Origin: a virus | Taxonomy: Duplodnaviria > Heunggongvirae > Uroviricota > Caudoviricetes | Virus record (IMG/VR): IMGVR_UViG_2541047945_000011 | Strand: one strand, 5' to 3' | Length of the DNA: 48,989 bases | Part shown: positions 1-7,069 of the stretch, piece after piece | How positions within the stretch are numbered: the stretch's first letter is position 1 | How the letters are laid out: each line of letters begins with the position of its first letter | Translations under genes and position numbers: made by a program | The notes under the pieces: generated by a model | What the model saw: only the letters and a program-made list of their open reading frames with translations | Databases searched by the model: none | What the model was told of the DNA's origin: nothing

Positions 1-294
1 TCACCCACGATTAACCAACAGCCAGACCAGCAGACACGCCACCACCGGCACAGCAAAATCCATCAGGCTTGCCACATCCCACGCGCGCGGATCAAAACCG
101 CCCCACCACGGCATATTCATACGCTTGCCATGCACGAACATTTCAATCCAGCGATATTCTGCCTGGGTGTGTTCACGCGCAATGAAGAACGTACAACCGG
201 CTATCGCCCCGTAAGCCCAGTTTCCGGTAAAAAGACCAGCCAGTACCTGCACCGCTACGGCACAAAGCGCATGAAGTATCGACGTGATATCCAT
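1..294 (-). CDS. Hypothetical small membrane protein (97 aa), downstream of the tail-fibre genes
   Basis: Complete ORF with ATG at 294 and AAGGA-type RBS about 7 nt upstream; hydrophobic segments (ILHALCAVAVQVLAGLF, FAVPVVACLLVWLLV). Family not recognised. Confidence 0.45.
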   Translation of the reverse strand: MDITSILHALCAVAVQVLAGLFTGNWAYGAIAGCTFFIAREHTQAEYRWIEMFVHGKRMNMPWWGGFDPRAWDVASLMDFAVPVVACLLVWLLVNRG

Positions 295-303
295 CTGCTA
301 TCC

Positions 304-582
304 TTAAAACCACTCCCTGAGCGGGCGCTCTGGTGTAACCACCCACTCACGGAACACGGAATCATCAAATCCATCGTCAAGAAGACGGATATTAACAAAG
401 TACCCTTCGTTTCGCGTGTATTCTGGTTCTCCGTCATCAGGAACATCTGTCTCCCTGAACGTAAAACCAATCTCATCAACCAGAACGGCATTCTGCAGCT
501 CTTCGTCCTCTTCCCAGTTAAGTTTCCTGAGAAATGTCCTGAAATCTGCTTTATCACTGAAACGCAACGTGAAATCTCTCAC
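304..582 (-). CDS. Hypothetical acidic protein (92 aa), translationally coupled to the side tail fibre gene
   Basis: GTG start at 582 overlaps the stf stop (GTGA), with GGGGAGG RBS upstream. Sits where lambda has tfa but does not resemble Tfa. Confidence 0.4.
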   Translation of the reverse strand: MRDFTLRFSDKADFRTFLRKLNWEEDEELQNAVLVDEIGFTFRETDVPDDGEPEYTRNEGYFVNIRLLDDGFDDSVFREWVVTPERPLREWF

Positions 583-2645
583 TCCACAACCTCCCCAAGC
601 TGCGCATCTGTTAGCTCTTTATGCCAGAGACGAAAATTCCTCACATGCCCAAATAAATGGCGTAATCCTGCTGTAGTTTGTCCACCAATGCGAATGGTTG
701 CTGTACTCCGGATATATTCCCATTTGGTTTTAGTTTCGCTGCTTAACTTACCGTTACTGACTACACATGTGGACCGTTCGGACTTTACCCGCATACCAAT
801 AAGCATTTTTTCCAGCCCGGCATTTTCATTTATTCGTCGGTTTGAACCACCAATATCGCAATAAGGAAATCCGTCTGGCCCATCTGCCGAAGATCCGAAG
901 CCAAGAATAATAGCCGCTCCGGTTTGATGACCGCCGGTATCAAAAACACGTGGCGCTGCATTTGGCGTTTTATACCAGTTCTTATGTACCTCACAAAGAA
1001 CCGTAAAAGGAAGATTATAAAGATTATTATTAATTGGAACTGTAACTATATCGCTTGCGCGGGTAGCCGCCGTCGTTCCTGAGATAATAAAAGATGATGC
1101 ACACGAACCATCCTCAACCTGAGGGGTGGCCAGATAAATATAGTCTCCAGATACGGTTGCTCCGCCCTGATTAGGAGAATACTGTATCTGAGATCCTATT
1201 TTTAACTCATCATCAATTGCCAGGATTGTTGCCTCTGCAAAAATCCATCCGGTAGCTTCGTCCTTTCTGACTCTCGCTGTAATCCCTGAGGCCGCGCCAC
1301 CTGTCATATTAATTTCAAGCGTTTGTGTATCAATATATGCATCACCAAGAAAAGTTGTTGCACTACCGTCATATTTATCAAAGCGGATACGCAACCTTAC
1401 CTGTCGTTCTGTTTTAAAACGACATGAGGTTGTCACGTACTTGTTATCGCCTGAAACATCAACTGACTTTGTAGCAGCAATTGATGCCATATTAATGGCT
1501 GACGTTTGCCCAATCAGAGAATCGTTACAAACAAACTTTCCATAAGTAAAACCAAAACTATCAGTTCCAACCTCAGCGACATTCATATTTGCAGATTTAC
1601 CCCAAGAAGCTGGAGTTGCTGAATTCAACATGTAGTTGGTTCGCTGACCTTCAATCAATAAACCTTCTTTTTCAAATCGTGGCTCATTAATTTCCGCCGT
1701 TTTCAGTTCGCCAGATTTGTTGATATATGTTGCCGTTGATGCGCGACTGAAATTAACCTGTTTATCACTGGCAACCTGAACCACATTATCACCAATCTTC
1801 ACTTTTTTATAACCCGGAGAATAGCCCGTAATCATATCCAGCGAATCATTAAAGGGTATCCACACATCCGGCAGCGGCTGTAAAACATATCTGTACGGCT
1901 CTGCTGTCTGGTTTGCGTATTCTCTGGCAGCATCTTCACTTGCTTTTGCTGCCGTCTGGCTTGCTGCCGATGCTTTCGCCGAGTTCGCCGCCGCTGTTTC
2001 GCTCACCTTTGCGTTGGCTTCACTGTCTTTGGCATTCGTCTCACTGGTTTTCGCTGCCGTCTGGCTGGATTTTGCGTTTTTTTCGCTGGCCTTTGTGGCT
2101 GTCTCGCTATTTTTCGCGTTGGTTTCTGATTTTTTGGCTGCTGTCGCGGAGTTTGCCGATGCAGTCTGCGAGGCCGCTGCCGCCTGTGCGCTGTTAGCTG
2201 CATTCGTTTCTGAGGTTTTCGCCGCATTCTTCGATGAGGCTGCTGCCGTTTCGGATTTCTTTGCCGCCGCTGCACTCTGTGATGACGCTCCGGCATGACG
2301 TGCCACTTCATTCACCATCAGCTCAAAACGGCGCAGTGCCTCCGGACGGGCATCATCCTCCGTCATGGCACCGAGAAAATCATTCAGCGTACCTGGTCTG
2401 GAACCTTCATAGACGGTAATGGTTCCGGCATGTGAAGGCGGAAAACCTTCAACCAGCAGGGTGACGCTGTACTGGCCATACTCAACATCCATGCTATAAC
2501 GCCCGGCTTCATCCGGATTTTCAGAGGCCACCGTGTTCACCAGTACCGTGGTGCTGTTACGCTTTGCCTTCAGTTGAATAGTGCAGTTCTGTATTGGTTT
2601 TCCCGCACCATCTTTCAGCACACCTGAGATTTTTACTGCTGCCAT
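579..2645 (-). CDS. stf: Side tail fibre protein (Stf-like)
   Basis: N-terminus MAAVKISGVLKDGAGKPIQNCTIQLKAKRNSTTV...FPPSHAGTITVYE matches lambda Stf from memory; long Ala/Ser/Thr/Lys low-complexity repeat (KxSETNAxNS); distinct C-terminal domain ending HVRNFRLWHKELTDAQL. ATG at 2645 chosen over the upstream GTG. Confidence 0.85.
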   Translation of the reverse strand: MAAVKISGVLKDGAGKPIQNCTIQLKAKRNSTTVLVNTVASENPDEAGRYSMDVEYGQYSVTLLVEGFPPSHAGTITVYEGSRPGTLNDFLGAMTEDDARPEALRRFELMVNEVARHAGASSQSAAAAKKSETAAASSKNAAKTSETNAANSAQAAAASQTASANSATAAKKSETNAKNSETATKASEKNAKSSQTAAKTSETNAKDSEANAKVSETAAANSAKASAASQTAAKASEDAAREYANQTAEPYRYVLQPLPDVWIPFNDSLDMITGYSPGYKKVKIGDNVVQVASDKQVNFSRASTATYINKSGELKTAEINEPRFEKEGLLIEGQRTNYMLNSATPASWGKSANMNVAEVGTDSFGFTYGKFVCNDSLIGQTSAINMASIAATKSVDVSGDNKYVTTSCRFKTERQVRLRIRFDKYDGSATTFLGDAYIDTQTLEINMTGGAASGITARVRKDEATGWIFAEATILAIDDELKIGSQIQYSPNQGGATVSGDYIYLATPQVEDGSCASSFIISGTTAATRASDIVTVPINNNLYNLPFTVLCEVHKNWYKTPNAAPRVFDTGGHQTGAAIILGFGSSADGPDGFPYCDIGGSNRRINENAGLEKMLIGMRVKSERSTCVVSNGKLSSETKTKWEYIRSTATIRIGGQTTAGLRHLFGHVRNFRLWHKELTDAQLGEVVE

Positions 2646-2662
2646 ATCCACTCCACAAAAAA

Positions 2663-2682
2663 GCCCGCCTGAACCGGCGGGC
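2663..2682 (-). terminator. Putative intrinsic terminator between lom and stf
   Basis: Minus-strand stem GCCCGCC / GGCGGGC with 6-nt loop, followed by a T-run (TTTTTTGTGG) on the minus strand. Confidence 0.45.
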
Positions 2683-2709
2683 TGTCATAACACTGTGTTA
2701 CCTGGCTAA

Positions 2710-3309
2710 TCAGAACTTATAACCGACACCCACGATGAAACCGTCAGTGCGCCAGTCACCACTACCGGAGCCTTCATAAGCAATATCAATGGCCACGGAT
2801 TCGGTCGGGTTAAACTGCACGCCAGCCCCCCACGCCAGAGACGTGTTGCTGTGGCGACCGTCATCACTTCCGGTCAGCACATCGTGCGTTTTCCCCTTGT
2901 TGTCAGTTACGCGGAGATAATCCCCGGAGAAAGTCGACACACGGCTGTAAGCCACACCCACCATCGCATACGCGCTGAACCATTCATTCACGCGTACAGA
3001 CGGCCCCGCCATCACGCTGAACCAGCGGTTACGCACGGAATCTTCATGCCAGCGGGTATCGCTGTAGTGCGTTTTTTGCTCATCCTCAGCATTGGCATAA
3101 CTGAAGGACGTAATCAGCCCCAGCGCGTCCGTAAACTCATAACGGTATTTCACGTTAATCCCGTTCAGATTATCGCTGCCGGGAGCGTTCGTACGGGCAT
3201 GAAGATACCCCGCGCTCAGTGTGGACTGATGTTCAGACGCCCATGCAGGCGCACCGGATACGGACAGACAGATGGCTGCGGACAAAATGGCTGCACATAA
3301 TTTACGCAT
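2710..3309 (-). CDS. lom: Outer membrane protein Lom (Ail/Lom family)
   Basis: 199 aa with signal peptide MRKLCAAILSAAICLSVSGAPAWA and beta-barrel signature ending ...GFIVGVGYKF; lambda position directly after J. Confidence 0.9.
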   Translation of the reverse strand: MRKLCAAILSAAICLSVSGAPAWASEHQSTLSAGYLHARTNAPGSDNLNGINVKYRYEFTDALGLITSFSYANAEDEQKTHYSDTRWHEDSVRNRWFSVMAGPSVRVNEWFSAYAMVGVAYSRVSTFSGDYLRVTDNKGKTHDVLTGSDDGRHSNTSLAWGAGVQFNPTESVAIDIAYEGSGSGDWRTDGFIVGVGYKF

Positions 3310-3333: not shown

Positions 3334-3358
3334 AAAAAAGGCGCCATTTCTGGCGCCC
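3334..3358 (-). terminator. Putative intrinsic terminator downstream of J
   Basis: Minus-strand stem GGCGCC...GGCGCC followed by TTTTTTATTG. Confidence 0.45.
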
Positions 3359-3376: not shown

Positions 3377-6300
3377 TCAGCTAATCGTGATGCCTGCAGT
3401 GGCTTTCTTCATCACAACAACCAGCAAATCGCTGATACTTGCTGTGGGATACCAGCCATTTACCCACCATGCTGATACAGAAAACTCCAGCGTCATGTCG
3501 CCGCGACCAGCAGGCATATCAATAACACCACTGTAAACCAGCGTATTATCCATCGCGGTACGGTTATAAATTTCAGCACCGTTTTTCTTCACTATCAGGC
3601 GGCATGACGAATAAGTATCGCTGTTCTCCCGCTCATGTCTGGCACCGCTGAAAGCCACCGCCGGAATAACAATCTGCCGGTTAAACGGCTGATCGTCATA
3701 AACCCTGACGGTAATGGTTCCTGATGGCCAACGCTTCGGTGCACGGGAGTCACGAGGGAAAGCCTTACCCACTGTTTTAACGAGATCGCCTTCAATCTGG
3801 TTTGCAGACAGTTTCCCTCTGATGACACAGTTCTTGTTAATGGTGACATTATTGAGCGTGCCGGTATTCGCCGTGATGGCTCCACTGATATCCGCATTGC
3901 GGGCTGTCAGCCTGCCATCCGGCGTCAGGGAAAACGTCGGAGGATTGCCGGATGACGTGATGCTCACCGCAAACAGTCGCTTCAGGAACACGTCGTTCAT
4001 GAACAGCTGATTCCCCTGCGCCACAAACAGCGGCGTGGTGTTGCCGTTCTCCGGGGTAATCATCGCAATGCGATCGGCCTGCAGCAGAATGTTACTCAGG
4101 GTCTGACCATCAACATCCTCAATCCCCGCGCCAATCCCGGCCACATAGGGAATACCGTTTTTTGTTTTCTGCACCTTCAGCATATACATGGCATTCAGCT
4201 CATTGCGCGTGTCTGACTGAACCCGCTGGATTTGCTGTATGGTCACGGCCTGGTCACCCAGCTTTTTATCCGTGGTCGAGGTAATTTCACTCCCTTTTTT
4301 ATCCACGTACTGGCGGACCTGTGCTATCTGTCGGGCGTTTTCTGACTGCCCCTGGCTGACAGTCTGTGAGATTTCACTGCTCACCCGGTCCACTTTCTGG
4401 CTCACCTGCGCGATGGCCAGTGTCTGGTCCTCATTCTTTTTCGCAACCAGCTGCGTGAGGCTGTTTTCCGCCTTCCCGATTTTCCGGGTCACTTCTGCGA
4501 TATCCGTGTCCATCCGCTGACGGATATCTTCTTCCAGTTGCGTGACCTCCGTACGCAGCGCTGAAGCATCAATGCGCTCTTTCAGTGCCTGGCCCAGAAG
4601 CGTCTCATCTATCAGCCCCCGGAAAATTTCCAGATACCCTTCACCATCATTGCTGGGCTGCCCGCTGGCTTCCACAAAAGCAGATTTTCCCACCAGGTTG
4701 ACGCTTCGCACGTAAAACCAGAAATCCGTCCCCGGCTTAATCCGGCTCCCCTGGACAGTCCACTGACTGCCGGTCCCCAGATAACGGGCAGATTTTTCCA
4801 CCTGTGCTGTGTTCGTGATGCGTTTTTCTGAGAACCAGAATTCAAACTGCACCGTCGGGTCATACACCGCCAGCACCGGTACCGCCGTTATCTGAAAATA
4901 CCCCGGCGTCAGCTCAATGGTGGCGGGTTTTGCAGGCGCGTTAATCCGGAAGGTGGTGGTCGCAGGTTCGCCCTGCTGGCCGTAGCTGTTAATGGCCCGC
5001 ACCGTCAGGGTGTATTCCCCCAGCGGCAGACCACTGAAACGGTGCTCCGTGTCTGCGGTGATGGCGGTGCTCACCAGACGGCTGTCTTCTCCGCTTCCGC
5101 TGGTCAGACGCAGACTGAAGCGCACCCCCTTCACCACCCGCGGCGTGTCCCATTTCGCCTGTGCCAGATACTGACCGTCAGCTGCACTCACCTCCACCGT
5201 CAGGTGCTGCACTGCCGGTGGGATAACGCTGTTCAGGCTGCCTGACTGCGGCTCAAAGCTGGCCCCGTTATCCACAATGGCTTCTTTTTCCGGTACGTGC
5301 TGCACCGCCGTGATGGCAAAGGTGCCGTCCGTGTTTTCCCGGATGGAGACACAGCGAAACAGGCGACGACGCAGTGACGGCAGGGAGAGTCCCCACACCC
5401 CGTATGTCTCCACACCATCAGGCAGGGTACTGACCTGTATCCGGTCCGGCGCGGGGTGTGCGGTAATGGCCACGCTCGCCGGCTTACCGCTGCCGTTAAT
5501 CAGATTAACAGTGGCCGTGCCGGTCTCCGGCAGTGTCACCTCCCGGTCCAGCGTCAGGGTACGGCTGGCGGCATCGATGGACAGGACACGTCCGCCGGTC
5601 ATGGTCCCGGCATAGTCGTTATCACAGATTTCAATGATGTCACCGGGTGTGTGCCGCAGCCCCTGAGACCCGAGCGTGAAATCCACCGTCTGCGTTTCCA
5701 GCAGTTCGGTCTTTATCACCCACAGTCCGGCACGGTGGGCCTGACCGCGGCTGGTACAGCCGAACGCGTCCATCTTCAGCAGGTTGCGTCCGTAGCGCAG
5801 TATGGCTTCCGGGTCTTCCACCAGTTCCGTGGAGGTCTGCCAGCCGTTCTGCGGGTCGGTGTAATTCACCTCCACCGCCGTGTGCCGGTCCTTCAGGGCA
5901 CTGAAGCTGTAGCGGAACCCCACGCCGTTATCATCCACCACCACATCGCTGTTGGTGTACGGCCACACCACATCCGACGGACGGTCCTGAACGAACGTCA
6001 GCGTCTGGCCGTTCCATACCGGCATACAGCGCATCGCCGAGCAGAAATCACTGAGAACGTCCCACGCCTTACGCTGTTGTGCCAGGTACGCATTAAAGGT
6101 CATCCGCGGCTCGGTCCCCCCGAAACCATCCGGGACCGTCTGGTCGCAGTACTGCCCGATGGCATACAGCGCCCACTTGTCCACATCCGCCGCCCCCAGA
6201 CGTTTTCCCATGCCGTAGCGCGGGTGAGTCAGCATGTCCCACAGACACCAGGCCGGGTTGTTGCTGTATGCCGGTTTCAGGCTGCCGTCCCAGATACCAC

Positions 6301-7069
6301 TGTACGTGCGTTTTTCCGGGTCATAGTTTGACGGCACCTGGATGATGCGACCGCGGATATGGTAGTTCACCGTCATCTGCTGGCCGCCGAACTGCTCCGC
6401 ATCCACCTGCAGCCCCACAATGGCCGTGTTCGGGTAGCACTGTTTCACATCGATGATTTCGGTGTATGACGACCACAGCGTCTTATTCTGCAGCTGGTCC
6501 GTGGTGCTGTCCGCCGTCTCCCTGACCATCCGGATGTTAAAGGGCCGGGGAGGCAGATTATCCAGAATCACCGAGGCCAGGAACTGTGAGGTGGTCTTGC
6601 CGTTAATGGTGACGTCCTTTTCTGTCACCCAGTTACCGTTACGCTGTAACTGAATCAGCAGGCGGACGGATGCCGGGTTACGGTCACCCTTTGAGGTGGT
6701 CTCCACCAGTGACTGCACCCCGAAGGTAACCCGCAGGCGGTCAATGTTCGCGGACGTAATGGTGCGCGTCACCGGTTTTGCCTTCGTCACTTCCACGCCC
6801 AGTCCGGTTTCAGCTCCGGAGGACTCAAAGCCTTCCGGTGGTGTCTGCTCCTGCTCCCCGGCACGCCAGACCGCGGTCACACCGTGTATCACGGGATTAC
6901 CGTCCGTGTCCGTCAGCGGGGTTTTGTTCACCAGGATACTCTGCAGTCCCTTCACCGGGCCTTCTATCGGTCCCTCACCAATCGCATCAATCACACTCAT
7001 CATCTGCGTGGATTTGAGATTATCCTTCGCCTCACGAGGCGTGTGTGCCTTACCGCCACCTTTTCCCAT
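3377..7069 (-). CDS. J: Tail tip / host specificity protein J
   Basis: 1230-aa ORF starting [39 protein letters not shown]..., matching lambda J; position after I. Confidence 0.95.

Follow-up and report, generated by a model that had tools for sequence, protein, structure and literature searches.

The side tail fibre of phage lambda, gpStf, is described from the cryo-electron microscopy of Ur-lambda. Its residues 1-91 form a collar, of which 12 copies, arranged in four trimers, surround the tail at the gpV/gpM junction. A linker (residues 92-101), a trimeric proximal coiled coil (102-393), a hinge, a gp37-like distal part and an OmpC-binding tip follow (PMC12617516). A different kind of fibre is Rcc01080 (GhsB), the head spike fibre of the Rhodobacter capsulatus gene transfer agent (RcGTA; GTA, gene transfer agent). 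It is a 325-aa single subunit whose N-terminal (I/L)-G repeat plugs into the pentameric capsid spike (PMC7296036). The present work concerns the gene stf of a Caudoviricetes virus, IMG/VR record IMGVR_UViG_2541047945_000011, whose whole stretch of 48,989 nucleotides is referred to as the window. The gene encodes a protein of 688 amino acids (aa) and is followed by two small genes, orf92 and orf97 (Table 1). We consider it likely that the gene belongs to a lambdoid prophage that looks complete and encodes its side tail fibre, of a type originally found in phage 21, with a swappable, glycan-binding head and with the orf92 product as helper or subunit. Its identification as a side tail fibre follows from the gene order J-lom-stf, the Pfam family PF08400, the collar match and the full-length match to phage 21 Stf and to PHROG 1419.

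The closest described relative is Stf of phage 21 (OL657228, CPT_21_22; PHROG 1419), which is collinear over its full length at 71% identity. Phage 21 carries the same three-gene cassette, its 92-aa and 97-aa proteins being 63% and 93% identical to those of the window, and its homologue of orf97 is annotated as a membrane protein with two transmembrane domains. The collinear fibre and the same two downstream genes place the locus among the phage-21-type cassettes composed of PHROG 1419, phrog_1361 and phrog_1443. The terminator annotated directly upstream of the phage 21 stf is equivalent to the hairpin of the window. The two fibres differ in the shaft sequence after aa ~180 and in the second head domain, D2, which is about 46% identical (aa 526-688) while the first, D1, is about 90% identical. 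Phage 21 also lacks the lom gene that stands between J and stf in the window.

Table 1. Features of the stf locus in the window (aa, residues of the encoded protein)
Feature	Position	Strand	Remarks
orf97, 97-aa small membrane protein, last gene of the cassette	1..294	-	phrog_1443, function-unknown family
orf92, 92-aa acidic protein	304..582	-	isoelectric point 4.3; GTG start overlaps stf stop (GTGA)
stf, side tail fibre gene, 688 aa	579..2645	-	intact open reading frame (ORF) from ATG; stop codon 579-581
Head domain D2, aa 526-688, Laminin_G_3 / ConA-like	582..1070	-	variable core aa 571-645, conserved ends
Head domain D1, aa 341-525, GTA head-spike-fibre type, variable core	1071..1625	-	NF048003; 6tb9_F3 match
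Conserved neck, aa 256-340, begins QPLPDVWIPF = recombination junction	1626..1880	-	low entropy in 38 alleles; high pLDDT, beta strands
Linker and heptad shaft, aa 96-255	1881..2360	-	18 regular heptads, aa 123-248 = window 1902-2279
Collar (tail-anchor) domain, aa 1-95, lambda gpStfN type	2361..2645	-	9e7m_Ta match, PF08400, lambda identity
Terminator-like hairpin between lom and stf	2657..2683	-	8-bp stem, 7 G-C pairs, then T-run (hairpin 2683-2662)

Collar and heptad shaft

The N-terminal part of Stf is of the lambda type. The Protein Data Bank (PDB) chain 9e7m_Ta (lambda tail fibre protein residues 2-94, a 94-residue chain) matches aa 3-95 with an E-value of 5.5e-49, and PF08400 (phage_tail_N) spans aa 3-132 (E 7e-67). 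Identity to lambda Stf amounts to 86% over aa 3-119 by tblastn, and identity to lambda orf-401 to 75% over aa 3-159 by BLASTP; at the DNA level, the likeness to lambda ends at window position 2254, around aa 131. An earlier sequence-only reading of the locus had recognised the lambda-type anchor and assigned it ~110 residues, slightly short of these limits. By homology to the solved structure, the N-terminal ~95 residues would form a collar whose four trimers clamp the tail at the gpV/gpM junction as in lambda.

The shaft that follows is highly repetitive. Between residues 121 and 240, Ala, Ser, Thr, Lys, Glu, Asn and Gln make up 93-100% of the sequence. Autocorrelation reveals a strict seven-residue period, with a self-identity of 0.39-0.43 at lags 7, 14, 21, 28 and 35 versus ~0.08-0.20 at other lags. 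Eighteen heptads of consensus x-S-E-T-A-A-K succeed one another in a single unbroken register (aa 123-248). The ~150-residue Ala/Ser/Thr/Lys repeat that the sequence-only reading wrote as KxSETNAxNS is thus real, with two corrections: it covers ~128 aa and its unit is a heptad, not a 10-residue motif. The repetitive DNA that it placed at ~1900-2300 was found as well, in the form of degenerate repeats at 1921-2230 (61-77% identity), the largest DNA repeat family (also labelled D1) being spaced by multiples of 21 nt. These repeats were too degenerate for Tandem Repeats Finder, which reported nothing in window 400-2900.

The KTSETNA heptads of Stf align locally, at weak similarity, with lambda Stf residues 205-286 (BLASTP). 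Because of this alignment, the shaft is best regarded as a shortened homologue of the proximal coiled coil of lambda and not as a foreign low-complexity insert. KTSETNA heptads are also present in a T5-like lateral fibre, and the shaft of the DT57C LtfA fibre was directly observed to be a three-helix coiled coil (PMC10713586). From the sequence periodicity and the homology, residues ~102-250 are predicted to form a three-stranded coiled coil of about half the lambda length (~150 residues versus ~290). DT57C LtfA and LtfB were considered as carriers of the head of Stf and rejected, since theirs is a different head type with an intramolecular chaperone.

Taken as a whole, the window fibre and lambda Stf have in common the collar, Ala/Ser-rich heptads predicted to form the same type of coiled coil, the position in the late operon and presumably the attachment as four trimers. 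The window fibre lacks the hinge, the gp37-like distal domain and the OmpC-binding tip of lambda, in place of which it has a globular lectin-like head followed by orf92. In contrast with lambda, which has Tfa, no Tfa (Caudo_TAP) gene accompanies stf. Judged by its sequence, Stf is a member of the lambda type by its anchor and shaft only.

The head and its putative receptor

For residues 256-688 (433 aa), nothing similar was found in lambda orf-401, in orf-314 or in any reading frame of the J-ea47 region of lambda. As had been proposed, the C-terminal ~450 residues are unrelated to lambda Stf, and the full-length collinear similarity that would have spoken for a non-mosaic gene is absent, none being found beyond aa ~185. 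From residue 256 onwards, predicted structure and family matches indicate that each chain would enter a self-contained all-beta head made of the neck, D1 and D2. The AlphaFold2 model of aa 250-688, based on an alignment of 49 diverse homologues from a representative search, is all beta with a mean pLDDT of 93.8 and a pTM of 0.90.

D1 belongs to the type of the GTA head spike fibre. The NCBIfam family NF048003 (GTA_spike_fiber, 'phage head spike fiber domain') matches aa 330-530 with 55 bits for a cut-off of 36, and the PDB sequence 6tb9_F3 (RcGTA Rcc01080) matches aa 299-545 (E 6.4e-8). In entry 6tb9 the RcGTA fibre is modelled at residues 2-10 only, so that it provides no fold information for the head. 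Rcc01080 is homologous to Stf over the same residues and shares with the head the framework motifs PRY/F-D/E..LLxE..TN and Q.E.G...SS.I.T....TRA.D. It is devoid of a collar, a coiled coil, D2 and an orf92-like neighbour. Stf therefore shares a domain with the GTA head spike fibre but not its role in the virion, the N-terminus of Stf being a tail collar. Domains of the GTA-spike-fibre type also occur outside Proteobacteria, in metagenome-assembled genomes (MAGs) of Saccharibacteria, Moraniibacteriota, Bdellovibrionales and Flavobacteriia (L119-L162). In R. capsulatus SP108, three contigs hold copies of the N-terminal half of the head spike fibre.

Regarding D2, Laminin_G_3 (PF13385) matches 31 of the 49 homologues (best E 1.9e-11). 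In the homologue P0172 the match lies at 387-517 (34.2 bits, cut-off 27.6), a position corresponding to Stf aa ~554-684. The closest fold match of the head model is the carbohydrate-binding domain 4 of the arabinanase AbnA (score 19.2), followed by Pseudomonas phage Pa193 gp46 (17.7), the botulinum and tetanus Hc-N domains (15-17), sialic-acid-binding CBM40 modules (14-16), pentraxins (12-14) and LamG domains (about 12). The Pa193 gp46 and E217 baseplate-fibre protein (PDB 9b45, 8env) is 15% identical and acts in the context of a myovirus baseplate, a likeness of fold that need not imply homology. The model has the beta-sandwich jelly-roll fold of the ConA-like superfamily, and its ConA-like fold matches are taken as evidence for the nature of D2. 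Domain search and structure prediction of the C-terminal part thus yielded a GTA-spike-fibre domain, Laminin_G_3 in homologues and a confident all-beta model, and the jelly-roll or LamG-like terminus suspected from the sequence is supported by the PF13385 matches, their position in P0172 and the fold matches. D1 and D2 were also compared as possible duplicated domains, which was rejected (hhalign probability 0.1).

The same head is found in the lateral fibres of virulent coliphages (T5_ev219, Warwickvirus tonn, JenP1, Dhillonvirus and others), at 42-48% identity, along with an orf92 homologue (46-47%) and KTSETNA repeats. These fibres differ from Stf by other N-terminal anchors. In the two such phages inspected, T5_ev219 and Warwickvirus tonn, a second tail-fibre gene (573 and 224 aa; L086 5289-7010 and L087 4292-4966) follows the orf92 homologue in place of orf97, and both products have a weak N-terminal match to phrog_4563. 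The lateral fibre of these two phages may be branched or composed of two proteins.

A glycan may be proposed as the receptor of the head because of its fold neighbours, the capsule-binding RcGTA relative, the allelic diversity of the head and the presumed O-antigen targets of the lateral fibres. Capsular polysaccharide is bound by the head spike fibre of RcGTA (PMC7296036, PMC10218006). For the lateral fibres of T5- and T1-like coliphages, this head being present in some of them, the presumed target is the O-antigen (PMC8594841). The head would bind a cell-surface polysaccharide such as O-antigen, capsule or lipopolysaccharide, with three lectin-like heads per fibre providing avidity. By analogy with lambda, this would be a fast and reversible first adsorption, after which J would engage an outer-membrane receptor.

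Several observations weigh against this view. ConA- and LamG-like domains can bind proteins too. The Stf of the window itself has no PF13385 match at E <= 0.01, and the searchable literature yielded no receptor data for any fibre with this head, nor anything relevant on the 'head spike fiber domain' in coliphage fibres. Escherichia coli K-12, a host without O-antigen, was the isolation host of several phages that bear this head; the fibre is therefore either not needed on it or has another target. The RcGTA relative, moreover, has no orf92-like gene behind its fibre gene, and its fibre is a single subunit, not a trimer (PMC7296036).

Some of these points would fit a head that recognises an outer-membrane protein instead of a glycan, its lectin-like folds serving as protein-interaction modules. 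The LamG/ConA-like and botulinum Hc-N-type domains among the fold matches are often protein-binding, many phages with the head were isolated on rough K-12, and lambda Stf itself binds OmpC (PMC12617516). However, carbohydrate-binding modules (AbnA domain 4, CBM40) give the best fold matches, the sole experimentally studied relative binds capsule, and the multi-allelic variation of both head cores is the pattern expected of a protein that tracks O-antigen or capsule diversity. We regard a protein receptor as improbable on this balance. It is far less probable that the head has enzymatic activity against capsule or O-antigen, as a glycanase or lyase of the ConA-like glucanase superfamily, which would make Stf a fibre of the depolymerase type and not a simple adhesin. 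The top fold matches are non-catalytic binding modules, no GH16-type catalytic motif (ExDxxE) was found in the head, and the model lacks the beta-helix typical of depolymerase tailspikes. The residues conserved in the family (EPRFE..GLLIEG..TN and PQ.E.G..ASS.I.T....TRA.D) also sit at domain boundaries and not in the variable cores.

Exchange of head domains and the partner gene orf92

The joint between the shaft and the head can be located precisely. Homology to the fibre gene of a P2-like prophage (L005) starts exactly at window 1880, i.e. at aa 256 (QPLPDVWIPF), runs past the stop codon of stf into orf92 and ends at window 545. The same junction at aa 256 is seen in proteins P0047, P0080 and P0100. 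By this comparison, the transferred unit is the head (aa 256-688) together with the overlapping orf92. In L005 (2557-3999), the inserted head and orf92 are closely followed by a P2-type fibre C-terminus of 303 aa that has been displaced and by a Caudo_TAP gene that is intact. In the identical prophage of E. coli CP091756 (L002, 8674-8787), a pseudogene remnant of the tfa 3' end lies after orf97. Displaced fibre and tfa remnants are footprints of cassette replacement.

The head itself is composite. Among 38 distinct head alleles, drawn from 80 IMG/VR loci that were retrieved through the orf92 protein, three segments are conserved, namely the neck, the junction of D1 with D2 (526-570) and the C-terminal tail (646-688), and the variation lies in the D1 and D2 cores. 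Relative to the window, D1 alleles stand at about 99, 90, 70, 48 and 30% identity and D2 alleles at about 92-98, 46 and 40%. They occur in the D1/D2 combinations 99/93, 70/92, 48/91, 90/46 (phage 21 type) and about 30/40%. As this comparison shows, the D1 and D2 cores are exchanged independently of each other, flanked by linker segments that are conserved, and the mosaic is finer-grained than a three-part one. The sequence-only reading had drawn a three-part mosaic side tail fibre. Its architecture was right, to which have to be added the shuffling of D1 and D2 and the inclusion of orf92 in the exchanged unit. It had also suggested a swapped receptor specificity: the head is indeed an exchanged module unrelated to lambda, but a common and annotated one, not the product of a one-off swap.

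The association of the head with orf92 is remarkably constant. A head-bearing fibre gene lies directly upstream of orf92 and ends at its start in all 80 loci. Homologues of orf92 stand behind the head in two P2-like prophages, in T5_ev219 and in Warwickvirus tonn, and do so in a total of 197 phage records, with Dhillonvirus, JenP1 and rV5-like phages among them. The linkage of head and orf92 hence spans lambda-, P2-, T5- and T1-like phages. It also extends to distant fibres, the P0164 family, whose 15 genes are found in high-GC prophages of ~60 kb and encode proteins 34% identical to this head. A protein of 101-110 aa (phrog_18574) follows each of them (15/15) and aligns with orf92, with the common motifs GY[FH]VN[IV]R and, at the C-terminus, P..[VE]W[AS]. 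The same small-protein profile gave weak matches behind genes for GTA-type domains from Methylopumilus, Xanthobacter and a Saccharibacteria MAG. Across 44 GTA-type loci, where the presence of the partner was set against that of D2, the D1 and D2 profile matches overlapped in the same regions and the partner was detectable in just 6.

The orf92 protein belongs to phrog_1361, a family of unknown function, and has no significant Pfam match, no NCBIfam match and no informative fold match. Neither orf92 nor orf97 matches Caudo_TAP in Pfam, and by sequence and fold neither orf92 nor the Stf C-terminus matches the known chaperone types, Tfa/Caudo_TAP and the intramolecular Peptidase_S74. No description of the role of this partner gene was found in the searchable literature. 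It occupies the place of Tfa in lambda and of the intramolecular chaperone in T5, and most likely acts as a dedicated assembly factor or as a stoichiometric accessory subunit of this head type. We tentatively put forward, as a proposal that is plausible without being the probable outcome, that the head and orf92 (phrog_1361 / phrog_18574) form a conserved two-gene adhesin module. In it, orf92 would represent an undescribed class of assembly or accessory factors, unrelated to Tfa and to the intramolecular chaperones and needed whenever the head is grafted.

The third gene of the cassette is more restricted. It is found in 78 of the 80 lambdoid loci, which thus have all three cassette genes, and in phage 21, and is absent from the P2-, T5- and T1-like contexts. 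The orf97 product has hydrophobic segments at aa ~3-39 and 76-95, and could be the product of a lysogenic-conversion or exclusion gene. The window starts exactly at its stop codon.

Locus, distribution and significance

On the minus strand, J (3377-7069), lom (2710-3309) and stf follow one another in this order, which places stf after J and lom as the lambdoid late operon ends, as for a Stf of the lambda type. The 2067-nt coding sequence annotated by RefSeq is the same ORF (WP_021572852.1, 'prophage tail fiber N-terminal domain-containing protein'), with a GGAG motif 5 nt 5' of its ATG at 2645. The Ail/Lom gene matches PF06316 (E 2e-126). It is bracketed by two terminator-like structures, the hairpin upstream of stf and a second GC-rich hairpin with a T-run at 3339-3358 (-), 3' of J. 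The homologue of J has 1230 aa and shares 58% identity with lambda J, from which it differs by an insertion of ~100 aa near aa 838-960 and a diverged C-terminal part of ~150 aa. The receptor specificity of the central fibre J probably differs likewise from that of lambda.

That stf might be the decaying remnant of a cryptic prophage, unused in virions and mosaic by recombination debris, could be argued from the 14,951 places in 4,821 E. coli genomes, most of them partial, that match stf fragments and from the tfa remnant downstream in the identical prophage, but is scarcely credible given an intact 688-codon ORF with its ribosome-binding site and orf92 overlap kept, a sequence conserved at 98-100% in many genomes, ORFs that cover the entire window over a lambdoid prophage of ~49 kb, and collinear homologues in sequenced and named phages.

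The distribution of the fibre is wide. Four complete E. coli genomes carry annotated genes that are 100% identical to it at the DNA level; in many others, IHE3034 among them, the identity is 98%, and 516 of 5,426 complete genomes contain it at a coverage of at least 80%. Close homologues occur in the sequenced phages phage 21, HannyBb, Tritos, 2G7b and PhiR40_1, several of which have a recorded isolation host; the fibres of HannyBb, Tritos and 2G7b are 87% identical to stf at the DNA level. Comparison with the fibres of other E. coli prophages accordingly finds the same fibre in hundreds of genomes and in several phage families. Beyond these close relatives, an exhaustive profile-free search found the head in 2,899 cluster representatives at E <= 0.001. 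Among the near-full-length matches listed, the head stands at the C-terminus of proteins of ~420-1,480 residues. Its N-terminal partners in the set of 49 homologues include PF08400 (lambdoid), PF12571 and PF03406 (P2-like), PF13550 and a tailspike N-domain. Two of the database proteins look like assembly artefacts and not real fibre variants: P0001 reads 'MCIRDR' at an internal duplication, which we take to be the translation of the Nextera adaptor AGATGTGTATAAGAGACAG, and P0002 has a similar internal duplication. The distant head homologue P0241, compared with viral contigs, gave short N-terminal matches only.

Stf is thus an already known, annotated and widespread fibre type, and its architecture is textbook tail-fibre mosaicism. 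As far as could be found, the independent shuffling of D1 and D2 and the conserved small partner gene are undescribed before. For a common E. coli prophage gene, the finding changes little in the general picture of tail-fibre mosaicism. Its practical value is in host-range engineering, for which chimeric lambda Stf proteins have already been built on the lambda N-terminal part. The comparison suggests QPLPDVW (aa 256) as a natural graft point for such chimeras, the head together with the 92-aa gene as the unit to transfer, and two separately exchangeable specificity cores within the head. Hundreds of E. coli genomes and many coliphage isolates carry this head type.

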